Below, one piece after another: positions 37,068 to 52,792 of a stretch of 64,000 nucleotides of DNA. The stretch is from Nitrosomonas sp. (lineage in GTDB: Bacteria; Pseudomonadota; Gammaproteobacteria; Burkholderiales; Nitrosomonadaceae): contig JAMWZW010000008.1 of the NCBI GenBank assembly GCA_024281995.1, positions 29,806 through 93,805 of the forward strand. The letters run 5' to 3'. The notes under the pieces are model-generated. The model saw only the letters and a list, made by a program, of their open reading frames with translations, did not search any database and was not told the DNA's origin. Made by a program: the position numbers and the translations under genes. The first letter of the stretch is position 1, and each line of letters opens with the position of its first letter.

Positions 37068-37289
37068 GGTCGTCTCTAATCATTTAATACAAAAGGTAAC
37101 AAAAAATCTGCGCCTGACGCAGCATCGCTGCCGTATCTTGCCATAGTAAAGCGTGTGGATCAATACAGGCTTCTACCTGATTTCTGCTGATAAGCATTCA
37201 CAGAGTAGTTGTCATTTCAAGTCCGGCCAAGAATGTATATCAATGTTTATTAGGAATTAATCACTTTATTCGGAATGACAAATTTCGAA

Positions 37290-37309
37290 TGTTCAAAGAA
37301 TCCTGAACA
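37290..37309. promoter_or_regulatory. candidate enhancer (UAS) palindrome for a sigma-54 activator
   Basis: TGTTCA-N8-TGAACA about 200 nt upstream of the -24 element; a second inverted pair TTGTCATT (37209-37216) / AATGACAA (37274-37281). Confidence 0.35.
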
Positions 37310-37509
37310 ACAAGGATTGTGTCATAGGGAGTCATCATAGAGCCGAAAACTTTTTCGCTCATAACAGGGGATGGACCCGGCTTACCGAAATCAATTTCGT
37401 TAATTTTTTTCCTTCGTTTAATTTATTTCCTTTGAGTTCTAATTTTTTTCACTCATATTTTCAGTGGATTAGATATTTTTTGAACGATATGTTGCAACAT
37501 TTATTTTTT

Positions 37510-37524
37510 TGGCACGCGGCTTGC
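37510..37524 (+). promoter_or_regulatory. sigma-54 (RpoN) -24/-12 promoter
   Basis: TGGCACG-CGGC-TTGC, matching TGGCACG-N4-TTGC with exact GG-N10-GC spacing, about 110 nt upstream of the ATG at 37633. Confidence 0.9.
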
Positions 37525-37632
37525 GTATATCAAGATGAAGGAGATTGGGGGTTACACCGATTGACCTTACAGGAGCGTACAACGCTTATTTAACGCAAGT
37601 ACTTGAATAAAAAAATAGTGGAGGGCTATACC

Positions 37633-38325
37633 ATGTATCAGAGCGAAAATACTTTTGAATTCAATCCGGAAATGAGTGGTTTTGAAGCCGAGCAATATGA
37701 AGGTGAACAGTATGAAGGCGAACAATTTGAGCAATTTGAATATGGCGAAGCGGAGTGGGGGGAAGTATTTAATGAAAGTGAGGTAATGGAACTCACTGCC
37801 GAACTTCTGGAAGTTACCAACGAAGCAGAACTCGACCGTTTTCTGGGTAAATTGATCAAGAAAGCCGGTAGTGCCTTAGGTAAAGTGGTGAAATCCCCCA
37901 TCGGTCAAGCAGTGGGTGGGGTACTCAAGGGCGTCGCCAAAAAAGCATTACCGATTGCTGGTGGTGCGCTGGGTGCTTATTTTGGCGGTCCTCTTGGCGC
38001 CAAGATCGGCAGTGGCTTGGCCTCCGCGGCGGGAAGTGCACTCGGACTTGAACTTGAAGCGCTTAACCAAGAAGATCGCGAATTTGAAGGCGGAAAACAA
38101 TTTGTGCGATTCGCCGCTAATACCGTGAAGAATGCCGTAGCAGCACCACCTGCCGCCAATCCTCGCAGCACCGCGCAAGTGGCTGCTAATAAAGCCGCAC
38201 AAGTCTATGCACCCAATTTATTAGGTTCAGGATCGACATCAACCATGCCATCAGCCATGCCAGGTAAAGGGCGCGGAGGCCGATGGTTCCGGCGTGGCCG
38301 CAACATCATCATTGTCAATTGCTAA
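37633..38325 (+). CDS. charge-segregated glycine-zipper protein 1 (unknown function)
   Basis: ATG at 37633 with GGAGGG RBS; EQYEG repeats, ELTAELLEV..EAELDRFLG, Lys-rich amphipathic and Gly-zipper core, C-terminal GRWFRRG. Confidence 0.85.
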   Translation: MYQSENTFEFNPEMSGFEAEQYEGEQYEGEQFEQFEYGEAEWGEVFNESEVMELTAELLEVTNEAELDRFLGKLIKKAGSALGKVVKSPIGQAVGGVLKGVAKKALPIAGGALGAYFGGPLGAKIGSGLASAAGSALGLELEALNQEDREFEGGKQFVRFAANTVKNAVAAPPAANPRSTAQVAANKAAQVYAPNLLGSGSTSTMPSAMPGKGRGGRWFRRGRNIIIVNC

Positions 38326-38361
38326 GCAGTTTCTATACATATATTTACGAGGAGAACTAAC

Positions 38362-39063
38362 ATGCATGATATTGACCGTACACAACTGGAAAGCAACCCC
38401 GAGCTGGAAAATTATGAACATGAGCAATACGAGTTTGGAGAATACGGCGAATATGGTGAAACCGAATGGGGAGGCGAAACTGGTACTTTTAGCGAAGCGC
38501 AAGCGATGGAATTGGCCGCCGAGTTATTGGAAGTCAGCAGCGAAGAAGAGCTGGACCGGTTCCTGGGCAGTCTTATCAAGAAGGCTGGTCAAGTTGCCGG
38601 GAAGTTTATCAAATCCCCGGTAGGTCAGCAGCTTGGCGGCTTGTTGAAAGGCGCGGCCAAGCAAGCCTTGCCTATGGTGGGTAGTGCCATTGGTGGTTAT
38701 TTTGGCGGTGCGGGCGGTGCCAAAATCGGCAGCCAGGTGGCCTCTACCGCAGGGCGCATTTTTGGTCTGGAGCTGGAAGGACTGAGCCATGAGGATCAGG
38801 AATACGAAGCTGCCAAAAGCTTCGTTCAGTTTGCCGGAACAGCCGCAAAAAATGCAGCACTATCACCGCAGGCAGCCAATCCAAGGGCGGTTGCGCAATC
38901 CGCAGTTGCGGCAGCCGCCCGTCAACTTGCTCCAGGTCTCGTTCGCGGTGCTCCGGCTGCAGCGTTAGTTGCATCGGGCAGCGCGTGCCCTTCCTGCGGA
39001 CGGGGTGCCATGAGCGGCCGCTGGATGCGGCGCGGAAACAAAATCATACTATTTGGAGCTTAG
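38362..39063 (+). CDS. charge-segregated glycine-zipper protein 2 (paralog of protein 1)
   Basis: GGAG RBS; alignable with protein 1 throughout (ELAAELLEVSSEEELDRFLG, GLELEGL..EDQEYE, GRWMRRG). Confidence 0.88.
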   Translation: MHDIDRTQLESNPELENYEHEQYEFGEYGEYGETEWGGETGTFSEAQAMELAAELLEVSSEEELDRFLGSLIKKAGQVAGKFIKSPVGQQLGGLLKGAAKQALPMVGSAIGGYFGGAGGAKIGSQVASTAGRIFGLELEGLSHEDQEYEAAKSFVQFAGTAAKNAALSPQAANPRAVAQSAVAAAARQLAPGLVRGAPAAALVASGSACPSCGRGAMSGRWMRRGNKIILFGA

Positions 39064-39069
39064 CCTATC

Positions 39070-40431
39070 ATGGCTGCCACTTCTTACGCCACATGGATGC
39101 TCGAGCAGGAAGCTCGTGCTTTGCTGACCCGGTTGAAACGCGTCAAGCCTTTCGCTTTGCATGAAACCATGCTGCCAGCGGCATCGTTATTACCGGCAGC
39201 GCAAACCGGCATCGAGCGTTACTTGATGGAAGGGCGGCGAGAATTGAGAGGTATGATTCAACGTTACATTGCCTGGTTACGCGGACCATCCGGGCGTAGA
39301 GCCACGCCCGCCCATGCGCAGCGGCTATTCTCACTGCTGCGATTGAGATTCAATGCGGTACTGACACAATTTGATCTATTTAACGATGCACTCACGCAGC
39401 GCAGCGAAAATGAAATCGGTGTCTGGCTTTCCGGACTTGAAGTGGTGTCGGCTGATGCACTCACTATTCCGGGGCATTACTACGAGGTACCGCCAGTTAT
39501 CTGCTACCTCGATCGTGGTGTCGGCGCAGCGATCCGCCGTGCCAGAACACGATTGCCAGGCGGCGGTGAAAATCCGGTAGCGGTGATTCGTGTTCCGCGG
39601 GAACGTATGGTGGGCAGCGGTATCGCTTCTTCTCTGATCCATGAAGTGGGGCATCAGTCGGCTGCTCTGCTTAACCTGGTGAATTCCTTGCGGCCTGTTT
39701 TGCAGGGTATGCAACGAGGCAGTGGAGCCTATAGCAGTACTTGGGCATTGTGGGAACGGTGGATTTCGGAAATCGTCGCCGATTTTTGGTCTGTTGCCCG
39801 CATTGGCATTGCTTCAACGCTCGGGTTGATGGGCGTCGTTAGCTTGCCGCGCGCTTTTGTATTCCGCTTGAACCGGGATGATCCGCATCCGTCGCCGTGG
39901 ATACGCGTCAAGTTGAGTTGTGCGATCGGGCAAGCGCTTTATCCGCATCCGCAGTGGCAACGCCTGGCTCAATTATGGGAATCCTATTATCCGCTGGATG
40001 GATTGGAGGCCGCGCAACAGCAGAATTATCAGGCATTGCAAGCGACTTTACCTGGTTTTGTAGCGCTGCTGATTAATCACAGACCTGAAAGCCTGCGCGG
40101 GCGCAGCCTGGCTGAAGCCTTGCAGGTGCAAAACCGCCAGCCGCGTCGTCTTCAGGCATTGTTCCTAGCGTGGCGGCAGGAACCAGTGAAAATGTATCGC
40201 GCATCACCAGTACTGGCTTTTGCTGTGATCGGTCAAGCACGTGCCGACGGCCGCATGAGTCCGGAGCAGGAAAGCGCCATACTGGGAAAATTGCTCACCC
40301 ACTGGGCGTTGCGCAGTACCTTGGCAGTGTCCGCGGCCTGCTCAATGCAATCAGAACGGCCGAAGCCTTGGCTCACAAACTACTACCAACAAAATCGTTT
40401 TATTAACTATTCACTCAGGAGAATGACATGA
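39070..40431 (+). CDS. HEXXH (gluzincin-like) metallopeptidase-fold protein
   Basis: LIHEVGHQ followed about 40 aa later by WISEIVADFW (E-x-x-A-D third-ligand pattern); no signal peptide. Confidence 0.7.
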   Translation: MAATSYATWMLEQEARALLTRLKRVKPFALHETMLPAASLLPAAQTGIERYLMEGRRELRGMIQRYIAWLRGPSGRRATPAHAQRLFSLLRLRFNAVLTQFDLFNDALTQRSENEIGVWLSGLEVVSADALTIPGHYYEVPPVICYLDRGVGAAIRRARTRLPGGGENPVAVIRVPRERMVGSGIASSLIHEVGHQSAALLNLVNSLRPVLQGMQRGSGAYSSTWALWERWISEIVADFWSVARIGIASTLGLMGVVSLPRAFVFRLNRDDPHPSPWIRVKLSCAIGQALYPHPQWQRLAQLWESYYPLDGLEAAQQQNYQALQATLPGFVALLINHRPESLRGRSLAEALQVQNRQPRRLQALFLAWRQEPVKMYRASPVLAFAVIGQARADGRMSPEQESAILGKLLTHWALRSTLAVSAACSMQSERPKPWLTNYYQQNRFINYSLRRMT

Positions 40432-42596
40432 GTACAACTAGTCGAAGCCGAAAAGATGAAAAAAAGAAACCGGGAATCCTTAGAGTTAATTTATTCGCTG
40501 AATTTTCAGCTACAACGAGAGACCGAGAATTAAAAGGTGCTATCACCAACGCAGCAGTTATCGTCAAAACAAACATGTTTTCGAATAATAAAATTGTTGC
40601 TCAAGATGTGACTGGACAAGATGGATGGGTAGATATTCCTCTCGAATCGGGGGGGTATCGTATAGAGTTTCCTTCACTTCCCGATCAATGGCAGCCGCAG
40701 TCAGGGCATTTAAGTGTCACGGTTGACGATGCTAAATTTAATGAAACAGGACATATTGTCGAAGCGCGTCAGAGTGGACTGGCTCTGGATATACTTACTA
40801 CGGCAGGCGACGATTTTATGCCCAAGCCCAGCTTGAATATCACGCAAGGTAAAGGAATCTGGATAGTAGTCACTGTACCGAACTATTTGCCATCTGTAAT
40901 TCCCGATACCTCGATAAACAGAGGCTTTTTACAAAAAATTCAAAAATCCGAGCACAGGGATAATGTGAGCTATAAGGCTCAAGTAACAGATGTATCGGGT
41001 AGCGGTCCATTTGGTTTTTTTAGCAGAGTATTGCTTAGCGATGATCGTGATGGCCCAGCCGTTATTATGAACGACGAAGCTGTTATTGAAGAAAGTAAGC
41101 AAATTGTTGGTGGCCAAGTCAATACTACTACCTCATTAACACGTACTGAGACCTCTTTCACTGAAGACACGGCATTCTGGACGGCGATCCGCAATAATAC
41201 GGATGCGCTTTCATTCAATAATTATCTTAGTTTTATGAATTGGATCTTTTGCAACCAGTTACCTAAGAATTTGAGCGGTTTTGAAGATAAACGCTTTGGC
41301 AAAAAAAGAGAGGCCTTTGAAAGCGATGAAATAGGTTTATTGAATAAACGCTTTTTGCCTTTTACTGATTCAGATGCCTATCGTGTGATGAAGGCTGCGA
41401 CTGAGGCATTTGTCATGGTGAACTGTGGGGTGTTGAGCGAGGAATTACAGCCGTTTGACTTGGAGTTAGATAAAGCCTATCTCGATAGGAGAGATTTGCC
41501 GTTTCCACAGAACGGATTGAGTAGTGCTTTTAACGATAATTATCTGGTGGGCGTCGATGGCAATGGTAACGTATTGCCCTATCTCGCGGTTATTCGTCGG
41601 AAGTTACCCGATATCAAGATTAAGCTAACTCCTTTCGAAGAGGCGGCTCGAAGAAGTAGATCCAATGCAGTCGATGCGGACGAATGTTTTGGGCTGCTGC
41701 AAGAGAAACTCGCCAATCCTTGCTTGCTCGAGCTCATCTGGTCGTACTGGCACGAAGAAGGCATGTTGGTGCAAACAACTAACGCCATTACACGGCGGTT
41801 CCAGAATGTGCGTTCATCTGCACGTGATCCACTGGTTAACCTGGAAATGGATCCGCTACGGCCGCTCAATAATGTGCTTTGGGGTTATATCCAGGACGAG
41901 CAACATCGCTTGACCGTCAACCGGCGTAATTACGAGTACGATCACCATTACGGTCTCCATTTGGAAGGCAAAGCGGTGCAAAATTTTCGTCCCGCCGATA
42001 CGCGTTCAAAGTTCCTGGAAGCGTTTCATCATTTATTGCGTTTATGTAGCGTATTTTATAAGCAAGACGATGATACAACAATCAAGGCTGATGCTTTTCC
42101 AGTACTCAACGCCCTCAAGGAAATACACTTGATTCTGTCCCAAGGGGCGCACAATCAATTTGGCGATTTACCATCAACGGCTCGCATCGAAATGTTGATG
42201 CAGCAATGGTTGCTGGCTCGGCCGGAGTTCCGGGAATTGTTGCCGACGCGCATTATGGTGGCTTATCCCGAACCTTGGATGGATCGCGTTGACGCGATGA
42301 AAAAATTGCAAGGCTGGACCGATACCAGCGTATTGCATTTCCGCAACTTGGGCATGTTCGGTGAGCAACTTTTGCTTTCCATCCGTTGGGGTCATTGGAG
42401 CGACGAATTCGAGCCTGTCAAAGCGCTCAATTGGGCGCGGTTTTTCCGTCCGCAGGCTCAGGGCTACATTCATGCCTACCGTGCTGCAACCGGTGTTGAT
42501 CTATCGGTTGATTTGACTGCCAATGTGCCCGTGGATTCGACCTTGCCATCGGTATTGTTGCAAAAGCGCCTGGCAAGTCAGCAACGGGCGATGTGA
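40428..42596 (+). CDS. hypothetical protein (722 aa): beta-rich N-terminus plus helical His/Glu-rich C-terminal core
   Basis: Start overlaps the upstream stop (ATGA); long ORF with no recognised named family. Confidence 0.8.
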   Translation: MSTTSRSRKDEKKKPGILRVNLFAEFSATTRDRELKGAITNAAVIVKTNMFSNNKIVAQDVTGQDGWVDIPLESGGYRIEFPSLPDQWQPQSGHLSVTVDDAKFNETGHIVEARQSGLALDILTTAGDDFMPKPSLNITQGKGIWIVVTVPNYLPSVIPDTSINRGFLQKIQKSEHRDNVSYKAQVTDVSGSGPFGFFSRVLLSDDRDGPAVIMNDEAVIEESKQIVGGQVNTTTSLTRTETSFTEDTAFWTAIRNNTDALSFNNYLSFMNWIFCNQLPKNLSGFEDKRFGKKREAFESDEIGLLNKRFLPFTDSDAYRVMKAATEAFVMVNCGVLSEELQPFDLELDKAYLDRRDLPFPQNGLSSAFNDNYLVGVDGNGNVLPYLAVIRRKLPDIKIKLTPFEEAARRSRSNAVDADECFGLLQEKLANPCLLELIWSYWHEEGMLVQTTNAITRRFQNVRSSARDPLVNLEMDPLRPLNNVLWGYIQDEQHRLTVNRRNYEYDHHYGLHLEGKAVQNFRPADTRSKFLEAFHHLLRLCSVFYKQDDDTTIKADAFPVLNALKEIHLILSQGAHNQFGDLPSTARIEMLMQQWLLARPEFRELLPTRIMVAYPEPWMDRVDAMKKLQGWTDTSVLHFRNLGMFGEQLLLSIRWGHWSDEFEPVKALNWARFFRPQAQGYIHAYRAATGVDLSVDLTANVPVDSTLPSVLLQKRLASQQRAM

Positions 42597-43723
42597 GCTG
42601 CATGGCTATGATCAATTTCACCTCGGCGCTATATCTGGGACTGCATCATCCGAGCCAGTTTTTGCAACCCTGGCAACAACTTACACTGGGGGTGCCGGCT
42701 GCGCTTGAAGAACCGCCCGGGGCTGAGGAGGCGGCGGGAGGATTGGCACAGTTACAAGGGTGCGAGCACGGTGTGTTGTTGCCTTCCACGTTGCATCTAT
42801 TCTGGGATTTATTTGCCATGCTGCGCCAACAACCGGCAGCGTTGTTTCTGGATGAAGGAGCTTATGCGATTGCTCGCTGGGGAGCAGAGCAATTTAGTGC
42901 CAAAGGGGGTGATGTTTACACTTTCCGGCACCACGATCCTGAAGCGCTGCTGGTGCAAATCAAGCGGCATGCGCATCAAAGAAAATATCCCGTGGCAATT
43001 GCCGACGGCTTTTGTCCGGCGTGCGGTCATGCCGCACCAGTCGGAGAATATCTGGAAATTGTGAGACGTTTTGGTGGTTTACTGGTGTTGGATGATACCC
43101 AAGCTTTGGGAATTCTGGGTGAGTCGCCAGCGTTGCACAGTCCTTATGGCAAAGGCGGGGGCGGTATGTTGCGCTGGAGTGGAAACTTTGGACCGGACAT
43201 CGTGGTGGGCTCATCACTGGCAAAAGGTTTCGGCGTGCCGGTGGCGGCTCTTGCGGGCAGCAAAAAACTGGTCAAACGCTTTAAAATGGCCAGTGATACC
43301 CGGGTACATGGCAGTCCGCCGTCGGCGGCTGTTATTCACGCAGCCGCTCATGCGCTGACGGTGAACGAGATCCGAGGCAGTTTGCTGCGGCACAGATTGG
43401 CTCAGCGGGTTGTTCAATTTCGCAAAGGACTGGAAGCCATCGGCTGGGATTCCATCGGCGGCTGGTTTCCCGTTCAAACCTTGCGGGGAATCGTTGGAAA
43501 CGCCGCGGTCAAAATGCACCAATACCTTTCCCGGAACGGTATTCAGACAGTATTGTCACGGCCCCGCGATAACGGCGAGGCACACCTGAGTTTTTTAATT
43601 ACAGCGCGGCATAGCGCTGATGAAATTGATCATTGCATCGACATACTGAGCACATTGACGCATAGCATCGACAAGGCTGCAAATCGCAGCGGCAAGTCAG
43701 CGTATTCGGGCTTCATAAAATGA
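42593..43723 (+). CDS. divergent PLP-dependent alpha-oxoamine synthase-like (BioF/KBL/SPT fold) protein
   Basis: INFTSALYLGL, ADGF, LDDTQALG and SSLAKGFG (Schiff-base Lys); GTGA overlap with the upstream stop. Confidence 0.8.
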   Translation: MSCMAMINFTSALYLGLHHPSQFLQPWQQLTLGVPAALEEPPGAEEAAGGLAQLQGCEHGVLLPSTLHLFWDLFAMLRQQPAALFLDEGAYAIARWGAEQFSAKGGDVYTFRHHDPEALLVQIKRHAHQRKYPVAIADGFCPACGHAAPVGEYLEIVRRFGGLLVLDDTQALGILGESPALHSPYGKGGGGMLRWSGNFGPDIVVGSSLAKGFGVPVAALAGSKKLVKRFKMASDTRVHGSPPSAAVIHAAAHALTVNEIRGSLLRHRLAQRVVQFRKGLEAIGWDSIGGWFPVQTLRGIVGNAAVKMHQYLSRNGIQTVLSRPRDNGEAHLSFLITARHSADEIDHCIDILSTLTHSIDKAANRSGKSAYSGFIK

Positions 43724-43746
43724 CAACTATAGGCGAGAGGTGAATC

Positions 43747-46128
43747 ATGAATCAAGAACTGAACTTTGAAACCATACCGTTAGAACTCGCTCCTGAAATT
43801 ACGGGAGAAATGTTCGAGGTGGAAGGCGAGCGAGGAATCCGCCGCTCATTTGCAGGATCTAGAAACCGCAGTTTCCGGCCTGGCGTTCGTCCCGGTTTGA
43901 GACCAAAAGGAACCAAACGGCCGCCATTCTCGCGAACAAGACCTTTCGTAAAGGGGTCGCGGCGGCCGTTTGGAAGTGCTGTCTATGAACCTTATCCGAT
44001 TGCGAGCGAGCCCTATTCCAGTGAACCGGAACCATCCGGCTCAGAACGCACCCGCTGGGTACAGGATTGCTTGAATCAAACGGCGGGAACGCAACTTCCG
44101 GTGACTGGAATCATGGGGCGGGAGACACGCAGCGCCGTGCGGAATTTTCAGCGGCAGCAAGGGTTAAGAGCAAGCGGCATTGTCGGGCCGGATACCGAAG
44201 ATGCGTTGAAGGCGGCATGCACCGGACAAAATGCCGGGGAAAATTCTGAGCTTGAATCGTATATCAAAGAACCTGGTTTTATCGCGTGGTTAACCTGGCA
44301 ACCCAGTAATGAAAATCCGAAGTTATTTACCTGGGATGAAATCCAGAAGCGCGCGCGTGATCGGATTCACGGTGATGTCGGTGTTTATGTTGTTGTTCTA
44401 TTTGAACGAAGAACCATTGGCGGAAAAACCAAAAAAATAATCACCAAAATCCTGAAGGTAGGAAAGGCGATTGATGATTCCTTCAGGCAAAGACTAGAAC
44501 GCGAAGATCACCAAAAAATACGAGCAAAGTATCCGGGAAAAGTTGGATACTATCTGGCCAAAATACAAGCAAGCGGCGCATGTCCCATTCGTGGTTGCGG
44601 TACTGCAATAGAGCATTTGGTAACACGCACCTTGATTCGGGCGCGAAAAATGCTGCCTGAGCATCAGCGGCCTATTGTTCCTATCAAGGCACTCGAGCAA
44701 ATTCAGGTGGCCAACATTCTGCCGAAGCCTTTGGCAAAAAATCTTGGAAAAGCCTATGCTGCAGCCGGCCCCATGGATGTCCGGAAACAAAGAATAGGGC
44801 CAGTGGCAGCTCCAGCCAGCGGCTCCGGTAATTTGATACTGCCGAAGGATGCAATATGGGAACTGGAGTACCCCTTCAGCGAAGCCGAAGAACTGGAGCT
44901 CGCCGCCGAATTATTGGCCATTTCCAACGAAGAAGAGCTGGATCTATTTCTTGGCAAAATGTTCAAGGGAATCGGTAGAGGATTGAAGAAATTTGGCCGT
45001 TTCGTCGGCAAGAAAGTGCTACCCGCATTGGGTAAAGGTTTGAAGGCTATCGGCAAGGTTGCATTGCCGATTGTTGGCAAAGCGCTCGGATCTTTTATTC
45101 CCATACCGGGCGTTGGCACGGCTATCGGAGGGGCTATCGGAACAGCTGTCAGCAACGCGTTGGAGCTTGAATTCAGCGGCTTGCCTGCTGAAGAGGCAGA
45201 GCTGGAAATGGCGCGGCGTTTTGTGCGCATTGCCGCGACAGCAGCCAGACAAGCGGCTTTGGCCAATCCGCATGCCAATCCCGAAGCTATCGCCAATGCT
45301 GCTTTGATAGCAGCGGCTAAAATGCAAGTGCCGAATCTTCCTGTAGCGATTCAAAGAAATTCGGAACTAAACGGTGCGATTAATAATGAATGGCAGACCA
45401 ATAGCATTCAACCCGAACGATCCGATCAGGAAGCGTTTCTGGGCGATGTATGGAACTCCATTAGCACCGGAGCTCGTAAGCTCTCCAGTGGCGTTGCCAA
45501 TATGCTGACAGATTGTGCGCCCATTGAAGATCGCACAAGTTTTACGCCTAGAGATAAGCGCAAAGGGAAGCCGCGCGATATGAGTAAAGTATATGCGCTG
45601 GTGTTGCATCAGACTGCCGGCAATCAAAGGAATACGCCACCCAATCGGTATGACAGTGTCACTGCGCATTTTGTAATCAAGCCAAATGGACAAATACTGC
45701 AATTGCATCCATTGGCAGCTTACCTTAATGCCTCAAATGGGTTTAATGCTGGCAGTGTAGCCGTTGAATTTGCAGGTAATTATCCTGATGTAAAAGGTAA
45801 ACGGTACGTTTATCCGAATGGCGCATCGCCTCAAGGCATTCTGACTGCCGAACAGATCAAGGCTGGGCGCTGTTTAGTGCGTTACCTTGTTAAAAATATG
45901 GGCCTTACCCATATTGTGGCTCATCGGCAATCCAGTGCAACCCGTGCAAACGATCCGGGTCCGGATATTTGGTATCACGTAGGTCAATGGGCAATCAATA
46001 ATCTAGGTTTACGGGATGGTGGGCCAAGTTTTAAGGTTGGTAGCGGCAATCCCATACCGGATATTTGGCGGACGTGGGGAGAAACCAGACCACAACAGCC
46101 TGAACTTGGCGAGGAAATCTTTGCTTAG
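43747..46128 (+). CDS. multidomain protein: PG-binding domain + GIY-YIG-like region + third copy of the charge-segregated domain + N-acetylmuramoyl-L-alanine amidase
   Basis: WVQDCLN...FQRQQGL..SGIVGPDT (PG_binding_1); ELAAELLAISNEEELDLFLG; LVLHQT, TAHFVI, SVAVEF, IVAHRQ, DPG (Amidase_2). Confidence 0.8.
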   Translation: MNQELNFETIPLELAPEITGEMFEVEGERGIRRSFAGSRNRSFRPGVRPGLRPKGTKRPPFSRTRPFVKGSRRPFGSAVYEPYPIASEPYSSEPEPSGSERTRWVQDCLNQTAGTQLPVTGIMGRETRSAVRNFQRQQGLRASGIVGPDTEDALKAACTGQNAGENSELESYIKEPGFIAWLTWQPSNENPKLFTWDEIQKRARDRIHGDVGVYVVVLFERRTIGGKTKKIITKILKVGKAIDDSFRQRLEREDHQKIRAKYPGKVGYYLAKIQASGACPIRGCGTAIEHLVTRTLIRARKMLPEHQRPIVPIKALEQIQVANILPKPLAKNLGKAYAAAGPMDVRKQRIGPVAAPASGSGNLILPKDAIWELEYPFSEAEELELAAELLAISNEEELDLFLGKMFKGIGRGLKKFGRFVGKKVLPALGKGLKAIGKVALPIVGKALGSFIPIPGVGTAIGGAIGTAVSNALELEFSGLPAEEAELEMARRFVRIAATAARQAALANPHANPEAIANAALIAAAKMQVPNLPVAIQRNSELNGAINNEWQTNSIQPERSDQEAFLGDVWNSISTGARKLSSGVANMLTDCAPIEDRTSFTPRDKRKGKPRDMSKVYALVLHQTAGNQRNTPPNRYDSVTAHFVIKPNGQILQLHPLAAYLNASNGFNAGSVAVEFAGNYPDVKGKRYVYPNGASPQGILTAEQIKAGRCLVRYLVKNMGLTHIVAHRQSSATRANDPGPDIWYHVGQWAINNLGLRDGGPSFKVGSGNPIPDIWRTWGETRPQQPELGEEIFA

Positions 46129-46219
46129 TATGCCTGTGAATTATTTTCAATGATTTTTGCCATCCGAGAAAAATTGTTTTTTGTTGAGAATTGCACAAAA
46201 ATCTTAAAGGAGAAACAAG

Positions 46220-46798
46220 ATGACTACCATCTCAACCCAATCAGCGGAGGGTTCACTTGTAATCACGTCAAATGATGGTGAGCTTCCTGCTGCATCCGCC
46301 GTACTGTTGTTGAAAGCCACAAACCCGGAATATAACCAGCCTGTATTACATATCAAACAGGCAGGTGAACGTGGAAGCGCGGCTTCGATCCGGATCGACG
46401 ACCCGAATCCTGATATCGAGTTTGTCGAGACTAGCCCGGATAATCCTAATCCCAATGATCATGGCGCCGGGAAGTACGAGATTGCCGTTCAGTCGGATCG
46501 GCTTCAAATTAATGGCCGCAAAGCTGATGGTAGCCGCTTCGAAACCATCGTCGTGTTTCAGCGGGCGGGAGTAAATTGCGATCCTCTGCGGCCAGAAAGC
46601 GGGGGAAATATCGGTTTTGGTTTTAAAGAAGCCAAAGAGTTTAAAGATTTTGGAGGCGGACAAGGCGTCATCGCGATTGTCAATGTTTGTGTCGCTCCGA
46701 CGAAAAATCTCGCCGGTGCCGGAATTTTATATGTCGAGGACGGGGCGCTCAAATATATGGGATCGAAGGGAACAATAACTATTATTGCGCCAGCATGA
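46220..46798 (+). CDS. hypothetical beta-rich protein with a phage tail-fibre-like C-terminal motif
   Basis: AGGAG RBS; C-terminus GGGQGVIAI...GILYVEDGALKYMGSKGTITIIAPA. Confidence 0.65.
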   Translation: MTTISTQSAEGSLVITSNDGELPAASAVLLLKATNPEYNQPVLHIKQAGERGSAASIRIDDPNPDIEFVETSPDNPNPNDHGAGKYEIAVQSDRLQINGRKADGSRFETIVVFQRAGVNCDPLRPESGGNIGFGFKEAKEFKDFGGGQGVIAIVNVCVAPTKNLAGAGILYVEDGALKYMGSKGTITIIAPA

Positions 46799-46816
46799 AC
46801 GAGAGGAGAGTAAGAA

Positions 46817-48343
46817 ATGTCGACAAATTACGTTTGGCCGCTCAGCAACAGTACGACATCCGATGAGATGAACACTTCATTCGGGCCGCGCATCAATACC
46901 AATCGCTGGGATTTCCACGATGGCATCGATCTGCCGGCCAGTATTGGAACCAAGGTTTATGCTATGCGCGGGGGAATAGTGCATTTCGCCGGGTTACCTG
47001 GAGACCCTGGGGCGGGCAGGTATGATTCCCGTCATGTCATCCTCGAGGTTGATGACCCCAATGACGGATGGATGTATCTTGCTTACCTGCATCTTGACAG
47101 TATTGATGGGGCCGTGATCTCCGGTGCGAATATTGTGCAGGGGCAGGAAATCGGCACAGTCGGTAAGCACGAAGCGACTTATCCACATTTGCACATCGAG
47201 TTTCTCCAGGGAACGCCCGATGCCGATGCGCAAACCAGTCGTCATCCATTGAAGTATCTCCCCTATTCCAACAAGGCGAACTTTACCGCACCGCTAGCCG
47301 ACCGTTTCAATCGCTTCGGGCCACACATGGCAGCGCGTCTGCTATTCGGCGCCAGCAATAGGTCGGAAGGTGATTTGCTGAGGATTGAAGTCGACCTTCT
47401 CAGGGGTACCGGCGTGCTTGCTACCCGCGTCGTTGATTTTCACGATGAAACGACGATCAATAAGAAAAGAGGTAACAGCGACAAGAAAATCTTCAAAAAC
47501 GACATGGGCGTGGAAGGTTACCAAAAATCCCGCATGAACGATCCGGAACGTACACGTGCCGACCTTCACTACGGTATCCTGGTGCGCAACTTACCGGATG
47601 AGTGCGATACCCTCGTGGCTCGTGTTTTCGATATCGGCGGCAGCATGGTCAGCAGTGCGCCAATTCCCGTTCCGGATCAGAATGCAACGAATGAGCTTGT
47701 CTGTTTCGAGGGCGGCGCGATGCCACCCACAGGCTGGGAGCTTGTGACGAGCACGACAGGCAGCGGAACAACGGTGACAAATGATGCCTCTGCTGCATAC
47801 TCCGGTACGCACGGCATGCTCTGCATCGATGACTCCACTACAGAGACGAGAACACAACGGGCAGGTATCGAGTTTACGCTACCACCCGGTCGCTTCGAAT
47901 GGATTGCCGAAGGCTGGTTTAATCCGAATGTGCTGGATTTGGCACCGGATCAATCAATCTTGCTGCTGCATCTCCTGCATGGCGAAAATCTGAGCGTAGC
48001 GGCACGCATTCGCAACGAAGACGGTCAACTGCTCGCAGGAATCGTGGCGAAGGATAGCGACGGCGACTTGAGAGGTTCGAATAGTTCGGTAGTTTCCGGT
48101 GCCATCATTCCCGGCTTCTGGCGCAAGTGGAGACTGCATCTGCTACGAATCGGCACGCGGGAAACGACTGCTGTGCTTTATCTGGACAAAGACGGCGAAT
48201 TGGCAGAGCATGACCGCCTTAACTGGGATTCGACGACCTTTGAACCTCAAGTTTTGCGCGCTGGAATAGGCCGGTCGGAGGCGGGAGGGAAAGCTACTGT
48301 ACTGGTCGATGAACTGCGGATAAGCGAATATCCCATTCCGTAG
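46817..48343 (+). CDS. M23 family metallopeptidase with C-terminal beta-sandwich domain(s)
   Basis: FHDGIDL (HxxxD), YLHL, YPHLHIE (HxH); no signal peptide. Confidence 0.85.
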   Translation: MSTNYVWPLSNSTTSDEMNTSFGPRINTNRWDFHDGIDLPASIGTKVYAMRGGIVHFAGLPGDPGAGRYDSRHVILEVDDPNDGWMYLAYLHLDSIDGAVISGANIVQGQEIGTVGKHEATYPHLHIEFLQGTPDADAQTSRHPLKYLPYSNKANFTAPLADRFNRFGPHMAARLLFGASNRSEGDLLRIEVDLLRGTGVLATRVVDFHDETTINKKRGNSDKKIFKNDMGVEGYQKSRMNDPERTRADLHYGILVRNLPDECDTLVARVFDIGGSMVSSAPIPVPDQNATNELVCFEGGAMPPTGWELVTSTTGSGTTVTNDASAAYSGTHGMLCIDDSTTETRTQRAGIEFTLPPGRFEWIAEGWFNPNVLDLAPDQSILLLHLLHGENLSVAARIRNEDGQLLAGIVAKDSDGDLRGSNSSVVSGAIIPGFWRKWRLHLLRIGTRETTAVLYLDKDGELAEHDRLNWDSTTFEPQVLRAGIGRSEAGGKATVLVDELRISEYPIP

Positions 48344-48348
48344 CCGTC

Positions 48349-49839
48349 ATGTTTGCCACTGCGGATGTGCCAATGAGATTTGCGAATCTATCGTTTGATC
48401 CAACCGCTTTGGCTAGCGCGTACAGCCGGAAACATCATGGTCGCTTTGTGGCGGAGCTGGGGGAGTTTATTCGCTTCCCGAGTATCAGTGCGCAGCCGCA
48501 GCATAAAGGCGATACGCAGCGTTGCGCGGCATGGTTGACTGATCATTTGAAAAAAATTGGCATGGAACGAGTAGCTGTGATTCCTACCAGCGGTCATCCC
48601 GTAGTTTATGCTGAGCACTGCCATGCAGCGGGAAAACCGATGGTGCTGATTTACGGCCACTATGATGTGCAACCGGCTGAGCCGCTGAGTGAATGGCGCT
48701 CGGCGCCGTTCGAGCCGGTGATCCGTGGAGACGATCTTTATGGCAGAGGCGCTTCGGATGATAAGGGGCAGCTTTTTACACATGTCAAGGCATTGGAAGC
48801 ATTGCTTCGAGGCGGTCAGGGGTTGCCCGTTAACATCAAGTGCCTGTTTGAGGGCGAAGAGGAAATAGGCAGCCCCAGTTTGCCTGATTTCATGATTGCC
48901 AACCGGCAGTTACTTGCTGCGGATTGTGCCGTGATATCGGATACGCAAATCCCGGCTGCCGGTCAACCTGCCATCACTTATGCCTTGCGAGGTTCAATCA
49001 ATTTTGAGCTGGAGATCACCGGGCAAAAGCGGGAACTACACTCGGGCGTGCTGGGCGGTGCCATTCATAATCCGCTGCAAGCGCTGTGTGAAATGATTGC
49101 GCAACTACATGATCAGGCTGGACGTATAGCTATTCCTGGTTTTTATGACCGTGTGCGGAGATGGGATATGAAGGAGCGTGCCTACATGAAAAGGGTTGGA
49201 CCGTCTGATGAAAAAATATTACAAGATGCTGGAGCGGCAATGGGTTGGGGGGAACGGAATTATTCATTGTATGAGCGTACTACAATCCGCCCTACTATCA
49301 CGGTAACCGCCATGCATGGCGGATATCAGGGTAGCGGTGTTAAAGCGGCTATCCCGACACACGCTGTGGCCAAACTGAACTTCCGTCTGGTACCAGACCA
49401 GGATCCGCAGGAAATTGATCGGTTATTCCGGGAATATGTCGAACAGATTACGCCTCCGGGTCTGCGGTTACGAGTTCGTACTTTTGCATCATCCCGGCCT
49501 GTACTGATAGGCCGCAGCCATCCTGCAGTAATGGCTGCGGCGCACGCCTATCGTCAGGGATTCGGGACAGCACCGGTATTTTTGCGCAATGGCGGCACGA
49601 TTCCGGTAGTTGGTCTGATTCAGGAAATTTTGCATCTGCCTGTTGTGTTGATGGGATTCGGTTTGCCAGATGACAGGATTCACGGATCGAATGAAAAATT
49701 TCATTTACCCAATTTTTTCAATGGCATTGAGACCAGCATCCGGTTTCTGACAGCAATGGGTCAGAGTCAGCATGCCAGTCTTGTCAGGCGGGATAACAGT
49801 CAGCAGATTCGTAACACAGGAACGTTTTGGGGGCCATGA
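48349..49839 (+). CDS. M20 family dipeptidase
   Basis: YGHYDVQP, GRGASDDKG, EGEEEIGS, IHGSNEK. Confidence 0.92.
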   Translation: MFATADVPMRFANLSFDPTALASAYSRKHHGRFVAELGEFIRFPSISAQPQHKGDTQRCAAWLTDHLKKIGMERVAVIPTSGHPVVYAEHCHAAGKPMVLIYGHYDVQPAEPLSEWRSAPFEPVIRGDDLYGRGASDDKGQLFTHVKALEALLRGGQGLPVNIKCLFEGEEEIGSPSLPDFMIANRQLLAADCAVISDTQIPAAGQPAITYALRGSINFELEITGQKRELHSGVLGGAIHNPLQALCEMIAQLHDQAGRIAIPGFYDRVRRWDMKERAYMKRVGPSDEKILQDAGAAMGWGERNYSLYERTTIRPTITVTAMHGGYQGSGVKAAIPTHAVAKLNFRLVPDQDPQEIDRLFREYVEQITPPGLRLRVRTFASSRPVLIGRSHPAVMAAAHAYRQGFGTAPVFLRNGGTIPVVGLIQEILHLPVVLMGFGLPDDRIHGSNEKFHLPNFFNGIETSIRFLTAMGQSQHASLVRRDNSQQIRNTGTFWGP

Positions 49840-50630
49840 TGATCATTGATTGCCACTGTCATGCCGGAAGCGGCGATGGGTTTACCGGACCCTGGGATAC
49901 GCGGGCGCCATTAGAGGATTATCTGCGCCGTGCCACTGCGGCAGGAATTCAGCGCAGTGTTTTATTTGCCGCATTTCATTCGGATTACGCTGCTGCCAAT
50001 AAAGAAGTGGCGAAAATTGTAGCTAGCCGGCCGGACAGGTTTTATGGATTTGCATTTGTGCATGCGGCCAGAGACCGCGGGCGGGTGCATAAATTGATCG
50101 AAACCGCTGTCAGACAATATGGATTTGCTGGGATCAAAGTGCATCGCCATGATGCGCCGATTACCCGGGAAATCTGTGATGCGGCGAGGGCTTTCGCTTT
50201 GCCGGTACTTTACGATGTGGTGGGAGAAGTATCGGTTTGTGAGTTGCTGGCGCAAGAATACCCGGATGTCAACTTCATTATTCCCCATTTAGGCAGTTTT
50301 GCCGACGATTGGCGTGCACAATTAGGTCTCATTGATCATTTGGTTCGTCATCCGAATATTTATGCGGATACCGCTGGTGTGCGGCGTTTCGATTTGCTGG
50401 AACAAGCGGTGAAACGCGCCGGAGCGGGCAAGATTTTGTTTGGTTCGGATGGGCCATGGCTTCATCCAGGCATTGAATTGGCAAAGATCAAGGCATTACG
50501 CCTTTCACCACAGCAAGAAAAATTGATTTTGGGAACTAATTTGCAGAAATTAATCCATTCTGCGCGACAGTATCGGCCATCCGCTTTATCCGGAAGGCAC
50601 AACACGGCGCCATTCGCTTTTTCCGAATAA
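49836..50630 (+). CDS. amidohydrolase family (Amidohydro_2) protein
   Basis: IDCHCH, GIKVH, IPHLG, ILFGSDGP; the ATG at 49836 overlaps the M20 stop (ATGA). Confidence 0.9.
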   Translation: MMIIDCHCHAGSGDGFTGPWDTRAPLEDYLRRATAAGIQRSVLFAAFHSDYAAANKEVAKIVASRPDRFYGFAFVHAARDRGRVHKLIETAVRQYGFAGIKVHRHDAPITREICDAARAFALPVLYDVVGEVSVCELLAQEYPDVNFIIPHLGSFADDWRAQLGLIDHLVRHPNIYADTAGVRRFDLLEQAVKRAGAGKILFGSDGPWLHPGIELAKIKALRLSPQQEKLILGTNLQKLIHSARQYRPSALSGRHNTAPFAFSE

Positions 50631-50655
50631 AACTCCGCAGACGAAGATAGCGTAA

Positions 50656-52053
50656 TCAATACTCGCTATTTTCCTGGCGTTGCGCTGCCCGGCGCAACTG
50701 TAAGGCACGGTCGGTTACGCCGAGACGTTGCGCGGCGCGTTGTAAATTGCCGTTTGCTTCGTCGACCGCGATACGAATGGCGGTTTCTTCGGTGTCTTTG
50801 CTGATAGTTTTGAGTCCCATGCCGCGGTTCAGCGCGATGCGGATTGCCCGCTCAAAACTCATGTCGCGCCATTCTTTCCAATCTTCAGATAAAACCGGCC
50901 GTTCATCCGGCGGAATACAGCCAACAGTAATAGGGCCTTCACCCGCATAGCGGCACAACATCCGCGCGATTACCTGCTTGAGGTCGCGTACATTGCCCGG
51001 GTATTGCCTGCGTAACAGATATTCTTGCACAGGCTTATCAATGGTGGGCACATTGTGGTTCGTGCAGTTTTTTTTTAGGAAATGATTGGCTAGAGGCAAA
51101 ATGTCTTCAGATCGTTCGCGCAGAGGTGGTAAGCGGCATATATAGCTGGCAATTCGGTAATAGAGATCGGCACGGAATTCGCCGCGTTGAACTTGTGCCA
51201 TGAGGTCGCGATTGGTGGCGCAAATTAATCGGAATGAGGTGCGTTGCCAGGCATTGCCGCCGACACGTTTGTAAGTTTGCTCTTGAATGACCCGTAAAAG
51301 CTGAGTTTGCATGGTCAAGGATAATTCGCCCACTTCGTCCAGAAAAAGCGTGCCGCCGTTTGCGAGCGCGAATACACCATCCCGTGAAGATGCAGCACCT
51401 GTAAATGCCCCCCGTTCATGACCGAAAAATTCACTGCCCGATAATTCCGGCACAATAGTCGTGCAATCCAGAATGACAAGCTCGCCCTTATCGGTGCGAT
51501 TGTCGAGCGAGTGTATGAGATTGGCCAGTAATTCCTTTCCTGTTCCGCTTTCGCCGAGAATTAATACCGATACGTTGGTAAAGCGCGCGACTTCGATCAC
51601 TTGGCGTAATATGGTTTGCAGTGTTTGGCTTGTACCAACCAATGCATTTTGAACAAGCGAAGAATTGAGTAACCGATTGATGGCTTCCCAGCGGCGCAGG
51701 CGGGCGGTGATTTCATGAATGATCAAATTATCTTTTGTGCAAACCAGTACATCAGACGCGCCCGCTTCCATTAATTGCCAGATGGCTTCTCCTGAAATCG
51801 CTTCGTGACAGCAGGCAAGGACTTGTATTTGACCGTTGTGGCTAAGTTCGCATAACTGTTCGCAGAGTTCCGGGGTTACTTTGTTGCTAAAGACGATACC
51901 GGAGTGACTGCAGGGAACGCGATAATCTTGTACTTTGATGCCCTGCTGGGTCAAGAGGTCGATGAATTTACAAATAGTTTTTTCCGAGTACTCTCCGACG
52001 CCGCGAATCCAGACAGTGGTAGGTTCAGATATATCATTAAAGAAAGTATCCAT
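50656..52053 (-). CDS. sigma-54-dependent transcriptional activator (bEBP) with degenerate receiver-like N-domain
   Basis: GESGTGKE, FFGHERGAFTGA, LFLDEVGE, FRADLYYRI and a Fis-type HTH; the ATG at 52053 is preferred (TTG at 52065 is an alternative). Confidence 0.93.
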   Translation of the reverse strand: MDTFFNDISEPTTVWIRGVGEYSEKTICKFIDLLTQQGIKVQDYRVPCSHSGIVFSNKVTPELCEQLCELSHNGQIQVLACCHEAISGEAIWQLMEAGASDVLVCTKDNLIIHEITARLRRWEAINRLLNSSLVQNALVGTSQTLQTILRQVIEVARFTNVSVLILGESGTGKELLANLIHSLDNRTDKGELVILDCTTIVPELSGSEFFGHERGAFTGAASSRDGVFALANGGTLFLDEVGELSLTMQTQLLRVIQEQTYKRVGGNAWQRTSFRLICATNRDLMAQVQRGEFRADLYYRIASYICRLPPLRERSEDILPLANHFLKKNCTNHNVPTIDKPVQEYLLRRQYPGNVRDLKQVIARMLCRYAGEGPITVGCIPPDERPVLSEDWKEWRDMSFERAIRIALNRGMGLKTISKDTEETAIRIAVDEANGNLQRAAQRLGVTDRALQLRRAAQRQENSEY

Positions 52054-52792
52054 AGTATTTAGCAACGAACTGATTGAATTACATCCACGAAGAATCCGGA
52101 AGGGCTCTTCTCATGTTTGATAATTGCTTGCAGTCAGTGTCGCTATACTTGGATTTTTTGATCAGCCGAATTACTTCTTATTAGTATTCAGCAGGTTGTT
52201 ATTGAAGTGTTGTTCAAGCAATTATTTTTTCATTGCATGGCGGTTAATTTCCATGCCTGCAATTTCATTCTAAAGTAAATTACCTTAATCTTGAATAAGA
52301 TTTATGTATTCTTTTAATTACTTCATGATTTCTATGATAGATATATTGGTTAATCCGGATTCTCACTAAGTAAGCAGCACTGATTGAATCTTACTTCGGC
52401 GCTCAATAGGAGGTGGTTTGAGCGCGTACGTTGCTATCTTATAAACTTAATGAAAGTCCGGTTTTAATCTGAATTGGCAACAAATCCCTATACTTGTGCT
52501 AGCGATATTTCCATTCATTGATAATAAAGTTATCACCGAATTGTTTAATTTGAAGTGAGATTAATCACATGTCCTGCAATTTTATGGCATCATCGTTAAA
52601 CAGTTGAAATTTGGACTATTAGAAAATCTATTACCAGTCAAAGTATTGTGGCGATCTGAAGTGGTTGTTCTTACATTTCATCTGATTCTTCTCATATTTG
52701 CATTGACCTGATATGGCTTATTGCGTTATTTTTACCCATTTTTATAATAGAGCCTTTGATGGGTTACAGTTTTTTATTGGTTGGCGATTTTT

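Follow-up and report, generated by a model that had tools for sequence, protein, structure and literature searches.

A probable cassette-specific sigma-54 activator with a phosphorylation-independent input domain in Nitrosomonas

Introduction

How is a sigma-54 enhancer-binding protein (bEBP) controlled when its receiver-like input domain lacks the residues for phosphorylation, and which genes does it control? Both questions are raised by an activator gene in a stretch of 64,000 nucleotides of Nitrosomonas DNA, the whole of which is referred to here as the window. A first-pass annotation of the window had described the gene as an orphan activator, with a Cys-rich pseudo-receiver domain, that acts on a promoter 13 kb away. 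Pseudo-receiver regulators are common, and their switching is largely unknown (PMC12632262). A search of the literature for papers on this activator family or on sigma-54 activators of Nitrosomonas found none. The comparisons presented below indicate that the gene probably encodes a cassette-specific sigma-54 activator with a phosphorylation-independent input domain. The positions of the features discussed are collected in Table 1.

Table 1. Features of the activator gene and its candidate target operon, in window coordinates.
Feature	Position	Strand	Basis
Distal candidate enhancer palindrome CGAAAACTTTTTCG, CGAA-N6-TTCG	37344..37357	.	Conserved in alignment; recurs in other phyla
Proximal candidate enhancer palindrome CGAAATCAATTTCG, CGAA-N6-TTCG	37386..37399	.	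Conserved in alignment; recurs in other phyla
Sigma-54 promoter TGGCAC-N5-TTGC (TGGCACGCGGCTTGC), expected start about 37536-37537	37511..37525	+	Pattern scan; conservation upstream of first cassette gene
Target operon, ten genes	37633..50630	+	Domain search; synteny with activator
Sigma-54 enhancer-binding protein (bEBP), 465 aa	50656..52053	-	Pfam domains; orthologs 47-98% identical adjoin the same cassette
Fis-type HTH, residues about 420-455	50689..50796	-	Pfam HTH_8; ortholog C-termini
AAA+ sigma-54 interaction domain, residues 142-307, with Walker A/B and GAFTGA	51133..51630	-	Pfam and motifs in translation
N-terminal pseudo-receiver domain, residues 1-137	51643..52053	-	AF2 model, Foldseek, VIA-align, hhalign

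Results

Anatomy of the activator

The activator reading frame (50656-52065, minus strand) is uninterrupted, with the ATG at 52053 as the likely start and an alternative TTG start at 52065. Pfam identified a Sigma54_activat domain (PF00158, E 3.5e-58), an AAA_lid_14 match and, within the final 80 residues, HTH_8 (PF02954) at 22.6 bits against a cut-off of 22. The translation contains Walker A (GESGTGKE), Walker B (LFLDEVGE), GAFTGA at residues 215-220, and the FRADLYYR and NVRDL motifs; both Pfam and this motif reading agree with the earlier description of the AAA+ motifs and HTH as intact. With an AAA+ domain and a Fis-type HTH, in a genome that has rpoN and a -24/-12 target promoter, the protein has the features that define a bEBP, and it is a predicted sigma-54 transcription activator with intact AAA+ and HTH parts. 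A search of NCBIfam returned many bEBP equivalogs, with RtcR, NorR and NifA highest, all of which scored under their cut-offs. These matches start at about residue 83, and the best ones from about residue 130. Homologs of the protein bear Nitrosomonas names.

The 2.88-Mb genome has one rpoN (a single Sigma54_DBD match) and three true bEBPs. The other two bEBPs each carry a Response_reg domain and are encoded next to a kinase. The first-pass annotation had remarked on the lack of a histidine kinase nearby, and this holds over the entire 108-kb contig of the activator (C15): the genome has 26 HATPase_c matches, all of them on other contigs. On contigs C19/C11 and C2/C19, several matches to kinases and receivers come in pairs of almost equal score and ORF length (for example 1257-aa kinases at C19:31240 and C11:103522), which suggests either large duplications or the presence of two strains in the assembly.

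A predicted receiver fold without phosphorylation chemistry

Searches with the sequence of the N-domain gave no family. Pfam at E<=1 returned no Response_reg, no FleQ or other pseudo-receiver family and nothing else significant, and the domain is absent from the 48 Response_reg (PF00072) matches of the genome. FleQ-type PF06490 and five other minor PsR families in Pfam likewise gave no match at E<=1, a PDB sequence search found nothing significant, and NCBIfam contained no specific family. The identity of the domain was settled only through fold and profile-profile comparison and not by single-sequence assignment.

An AlphaFold (AF2) model of the N-domain, built from six orthologs, has a pLDDT of 80.5 and places strands and helices in (beta-alpha)5 order. 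The best Foldseek matches to this model were the atypical receivers of CpaE/TadZ, followed by LuxO, CheY, KdpE, BrpR and NtrC1. VIA-align of the model against 48,161 chains gave Z of 10-12 to receivers, including NtrC1, DctD, NtrX, HupR and the atypical HP1043. Additionally, hhalign of the N-domain profile against ten canonical receivers of the same genome gave an E of 2.4e-5. A CARF domain, as in RtcR, was not seen: the 50 best VIA-align structural matches include none, and the RtcR models match residues 130-463 only, at 289 bits against an NCBIfam equivalog cut-off of 650.

The hhalign comparison pairs the receiver phospho-Asp with Asn57 and the receiver Lys with Cys105. Strand beta3 ends in SGIVFSN57K, where Asn stands for the phospho-Asp. 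The beta1 loop reads VGEYS, in which the acidic pair is missing and only a non-conserved Glu is found, and the receiver Thr position falls on C81 or C82, varying with the alignment. From the canonical receiver set (DD, D, T, K), the DD, D and K are missing. The earlier observations of a receiver-like AGASDVL motif and of an absent acidic pocket and phospho-Asp at SGIVFSNK are both confirmed by these alignments. Judged from the model, the N-domain is a CheY-like pseudo-receiver and, by the definition in PMC12632262, an aspartate-less receiver (ALR). The domain is derived from a receiver but is predicted to have lost the ability to be phosphorylated; with the phosphorylation chemistry gone, control is expected to be independent of phosphorylation. 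In the classification scheme for bEBPs of PMC3162934, with its types Ia and Ib, the activator would count as type Ib on Pfam, yet its structural origin is type Ia.

A profile search with the N-domain found 438 clusters among 1.84 billion representatives, and the domain defines a pseudo-receiver family without a Pfam match. Column statistics were obtained from 156 aligned sequences of this family. The acidic pair is missing across the family. The Lys column never holds K and is W in 81%, and V, T and I predominate in the Thr column. At the Asp column, D accounts for 42% and S, E, N, G or A for the remainder. Both Nitrosospira orthologs keep Asp at this acceptor column; with Asp retained to this extent, a vestigial acid-dependent role is possible in the members that keep it.

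The activator travels with an adjoining cassette

Of the ten operon genes, two encode small proteins that are paralogs of each other, and two encode proteins of 453 aa and 722 aa that gave no Pfam hits. The remaining six encode a BioF/Kbl-like PLP enzyme, a PG_binding+Amidase_2 protein, a 192-aa protein, the peptidases M23 and M20, and an Amidohydro_2 enzyme. The operon forms a cassette of signal-less cell-wall hydrolases that is undescribed and widely transferred, and PADLOC defence models gave no matches to its proteins. To call the activator an orphan acting over 13 kb is misleading, as it is the terminal gene of the cassette and lies 25 bp from the last gene of the operon. The two genes converge across those 25 bp between their stop codons (50631-50655), and a strong bidirectional terminator is lacking there; transcripts that ran on from the sigma-54 promoter would be antisense to the mRNA of the activator.

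Of 80 genomes from the taxonomic family, seven have the N-domain and six have the 722-aa cassette protein. In each of these six, the contig with the 722-aa protein also encodes the N-domain; the seventh N-domain genome retains only a broken activator remnant. Across 185,579 species genomes, a scan found 33 loci encoding the N-domain, 30 of which have adjoining cassette genes; the three exceptions are two short contigs and one partial remnant. The loci that combine cassette and activator span Pseudomonadota, Myxococcota, Desulfobacterota, Chloroflexota, Acidobacteriota and Bacteroidota. A sample of 400 genomes of the phylum yielded one further carrier only, and the family is therefore sparse. 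The genes that flank the activator and cassette vary between lineages, indicating that activator and cassette move together.

The Amidohydro_2 gene is the direct neighbor of the activator in nearly all loci, usually convergent and sometimes tandem, and is missing in Bradyrhizobium. Its product (encoded at 49827-50630) is the most conserved component of the cassette across phyla, with 62-80% identity compared to 47-55% for the activator.

The content of the cassette varies in places. The genes for the 192-aa protein and the M23 peptidase (46220-48343 in the window) are missing from the cassettes of N. ureae Nm13, Nm132 and Nm166 (L016, L017 and L018), and some of these cassettes lack the M20 gene as well; the operon is modular and variable in its 3' half. 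In Nitrosospira sp. Nsp1 (L019:5405-6861) the two paralogous small genes are in the order opposite to that in Nitrosomonas. In Nitrosospira briensis both small-protein queries match one region, and the cassette there may hold a single copy. Activator remnants without nearby cassette genes occur at L021:9789-10232, in a genome of the same genus (G011), and at L036:4707-4901, in Nitrosomonas sp. Nm33. These broken or partial remnants suggest that the cassette was lost in some Nitrosomonas lineages.

Promoter and leader of the operon

The exact -24/-12 element that the first-pass annotation had placed at the 5' end of the operon was confirmed. TGGCAC-N5-TTGC has nine exact matches genome-wide, compared to about 4 expected from base composition by our own estimate. 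Eight of the nine copies are inside ORFs; only the one at 37511, located 79 nt upstream of the first operon ORF, is both intergenic and upstream of a gene on the same strand. The element is kept in the Nitrosomonas relatives, and the -12 region reads TCGC or GTGC in Nitrosospira.

The leader of ~97 nt (37537-37632) is well conserved among the Nitrosomonas relatives, including ATGAAGGAGAT right after the predicted start. It matched no Rfam family and has no significant fold (z-score -1.24). Operon genes between 37760 and about 49160 are represented in metatranscriptome contigs of a sediment study and a sludge study. No such contig spans 37134-37700, and no start site could be read from RNA. Because this evidence consists of assembled contigs with possible DNA carry-over, it is a weak hint of expression.

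Candidate enhancer palindromes

Alignment of five Nitrosomonas upstream regions identified two CGAA-N6-TTCG palindromes that are 42 bp apart, centre to centre, with the proximal centre 118 bp upstream of the -24 GG. Single sites of this kind number 39 in the 2.88-Mb genome, which is about chance level, and only one pair occurs within 150 bp. Counting the present window, the pair was found in 17 loci. Its spacing is 41-42 bp in Nitrosospira, Polyangiaceae, Geotalea, Massilia, Rugamonas, Pseudoduganella and Acidobacteriota, and 32 bp in Bradyrhizobium. Downstream of the pair, a -24/-12 element is present in all 17 loci except L052, which has none by the pattern used. The distance from the proximal palindrome to the -24 GG is 106-210 bp in Nitrosomonadaceae compared to 38-52 bp elsewhere. 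In Paraflavitalea, neither promoter nor palindromes were found in the locus DNA examined. The HTH motif GNLQRAAxRLGVTDRALQxRR is kept across phyla, as determined by comparing the ortholog C-termini of palindrome-bearing taxa.

Between enhancer and promoter (37400-37510 in the window) Nitrosomonadaceae have an AT-rich stretch of ~70-170 bp, which is missing in other phyla, and this spacer contains a conserved TATTTTCA motif. An IHF consensus was sought in the 118-bp enhancer-promoter spacer and none was found.

A different upstream palindrome, TGTTCA-N8-TGAACA, had been proposed earlier. It does exist at 37290-37309, but it is not conserved and is broken in a relative whose activator is 98% identical, and 6-bp inverted repeats in the spacer occur at chance level (5 observed compared to 3.5 +/- 2.5). 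We therefore reject it as the enhancer. The footprinting window suggested with it, 37200-37330, is consequently unsupported; the conserved candidate sites lie at 37344-37399.

Single palindromes near weak -24/-12 look-alikes elsewhere in the genome (contigs C2 and C17) sit inside long ORFs and were rejected as further targets. The ten-gene operon appears to be the only target of the activator in this genome. Upstream of the activator genes themselves there is no sigma-54 promoter, no CGAA-N6-TTCG site and no conserved LexA-type box, and with these elements missing we reject autoregulation or SOS control of the activator. One isolated LexA-like box is present upstream of the activator in Nitrosospira Nsp1.

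Phyletic co-occurrence, synteny in 30 of 33 loci and the conservation of promoter, enhancer and HTH strongly support the prediction that the activator is dedicated to the adjoining cassette. The dedicated role assigned to it by the first-pass annotation is thus upheld by comparison, but not through the palindrome that had been proposed for it.

Discussion

Proposed control of the cassette

Our proposal starts from the domain anatomy, the loss of catalytic residues and the co-inheritance with cassette, promoter and enhancer established above. The Fis-type HTH would bind the two CGAA-N6-TTCG palindromes, which lie four helical turns apart and would be centred near -143 and -185. The AAA+ ring would remodel the sigma-54 holoenzyme at TGGCAC-N5-TTGC, and this remodelling would switch on the ten-gene operon of cell-wall hydrolases.

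What holds the activator in check may be read from the conserved surface of the N-domain. The family signature consists of W15, G52, W92, LLxAGA[SA]DV[LF]xW, R118 and R121-W122. In the model, W92, LLxAGASDV, W/C105, R118 and R121-W122 map to the alpha4-beta5-alpha5 face and the start of the linker helix, and helix alpha5 (residues 108-129) extends toward the AAA+ domain. Confidence in the AAA+ loops is low in the full-length model (pLDDT 71.6), whose interdomain information is limited to the linker helix; the structure models are monomers, with a dimer or partner beyond their reach. We tentatively suggest that the alpha4-beta5-alpha5 face either locks the activator in a dimeric, inactive state or serves as a docking site for a ligand or a protein partner. 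A signal would free the activator from this hold, amounting to negative control of the NtrC1/DctD type without phosphate. We favor such a phosphorylation-independent switch, ranking it above constitutive activity and well above control by Cys or by a kinase.

The activator could instead be constitutive, with the pseudo-receiver only a structural or oligomerisation module and control exerted via the amount of activator or the availability of sigma-54. Intrinsic dimers that need no signal for activity are common among pseudo-receiver regulators (PMC12632262), the RNA-library contigs of both studies contain operon genes, and no partner gene is evident. However, the conservation across phyla of W15, G52, W92, AGASDV, R118 and R121-W122 on the surface exceeds the need of a passive spacer. 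Unregulated signal-less wall hydrolases would also seem costly, and no conserved LexA-type box, sigma-54 promoter or CGAA-N6-TTCG site is seen upstream of the activator genes. We consider constitutive activity unlikely.

The pseudo-receiver might dock a protein encoded by the cassette. The best candidate is the Amidohydro_2 protein, because its gene is the immediate neighbor of the activator in nearly every locus and its sequence is so highly conserved across phyla. It would act as a trigger enzyme that couples a wall- or cassette-derived metabolite to control of the operon. This extension is distinctly doubtful; if true, it would put a potentially self-lytic operon under metabolite-linked on/off control.

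Cysteines of the N-domain

Could the cysteines be the sensor? The first-pass annotation had counted seven Cys in the N-domain, which is correct (C28, C48, C64, C68, C81, C82 and C105, against a family median of 2), and had listed metal and redox state, beside a ligand or a protein partner, among the possible inputs. By a Cys-based account C64, C81, C82 and C105 would line the former phospho-pocket and bind metal or form a redox disulfide. An NCCCC pattern at 57/64/81/82/105 recurs in close relatives, C81/C82 and C105 are at the ends of beta4 and beta5, the usual places of the receiver Thr and Lys, and redox-switched pseudo-receivers such as RitR and HP1021 exist (PMC12632262, PMC4395418). However, the family has no invariant Cys column. 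C64, C81 and C82 are retained only in the clade of Nitrosomonas and Methylococcaceae, and C105 is F, N or S in other members of these groups and, as the Lys column, W in 81% of the family. The ortholog of Nitrosospira Nsp1 lacks Cys altogether and retains the same cassette, promoter and palindromes. Additionally, the protein is not a Cys-ALR in the published sense, which places Cys at the phospho-Asp position (PMC4395418), because that position is Asn57. The Cys richness of the N-domain, as judged by alignment, is lineage-specific. A family median of 2 and an ortholog without any Cys indicate that Cys, metal or redox sensing is not the family mechanism, and the earlier emphasis on cysteines is not borne out. 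Even for the present protein we regard it as improbable.

Other activators and distant kinases

It is highly improbable that the promoter at 37511 is served by one of the two NtrC-type activators while the present gene regulates something else: bEBPs can cross-activate from solution, but activator, cassette, promoter and palindromes are co-inherited in every informative locus, the genome has no second palindrome pair, and the two single sites near weak -24/-12 look-alikes fall inside long ORFs. Ordinary phosphorylation of the N-domain by a kinase encoded elsewhere is scarcely credible: the genome does have its 26 HATPase_c matches and 42% of the family has Asp at the acceptor column, but the acceptor position here is Asn57, the acidic pair is missing and Lys never present in the 156 family sequences, Pfam Response_reg gives no match, and no kinase is found among the cassette components identified in the 33 loci, to which this comparison was confined.

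The activator, with a possible switch on its alpha4-beta5-alpha5 face still the reading we favor, is an unusually clean test case, with a single candidate promoter, a two-site candidate enhancer and a conserved input-domain surface. Orthologs are present in cultured strains, including Nitrosomonas ureae Nm13, Nitrosospira briensis, Massilia, Rugamonas and Bradyrhizobium. The activator provides an experimental handle on the cassette, and its inducing signal would show the purpose of the cassette.

Comparison with known systems

PspF-PspA, NifA-NifL and DhaR-DhaK/L are activators under partner-protein control, the partner sometimes being an enzyme of the regulated operon. They suggest how a kinase-less bEBP within its own operon might be controlled, by a partner that is hypothetical for the present activator.

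RitR, HP1021 and the Cys-ALRs are, like the activator, Cys-carrying pseudo-receivers without a kinase. In contrast to their one defined conserved Cys, the activator has clade-specific Cys and an Asn at the Asp position.

The CpaE/TadZ atypical receivers (4dad, 4dn6 and 4lda) are the best structural matches, with a Foldseek E of 1.2e-4 and VIA Z of 11.8 and 11.2. They have in common with the activator a weak motif, AG-x-DVL-x-W, in place of the Lys region (E 0.3), although the sequence similarity is not significant. While TadZ domains are found on ParA/MinD-type ATPases for pilus localisation, the domain of the activator is found on a bEBP.

NtrC1 and DctD have the receiver fold in common with the activator (Z about 11 to 1zy2 and 1l5y), as well as a short helical continuation of alpha5 into the AAA+ domain, and the conserved residues of the activator lie on alpha4-beta5-alpha5. 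However, NtrC1 and DctD are switched by Asp phosphorylation from a cognate kinase, and the pocket for this is gone from the activator.

Similar to the activator, the PF06490 pseudo-receiver bEBPs FleQ and FlrA have a (beta-alpha)5 N-domain without the phosphorylation residues and no partner kinase; they are regulated through dimerisation and partners (PMC12632262). The activator differs from them in giving no PF06490 match at E<=1 and in having its own signature, W15, W92, AGASDV-x-W and RxxRW. For the activator, a FleN-like partner or a c-di-GMP site would be hypothetical. Lastly, FleQ and FlrA target the flagellar regulon, whereas the candidate target of the activator is a single hydrolase cassette.
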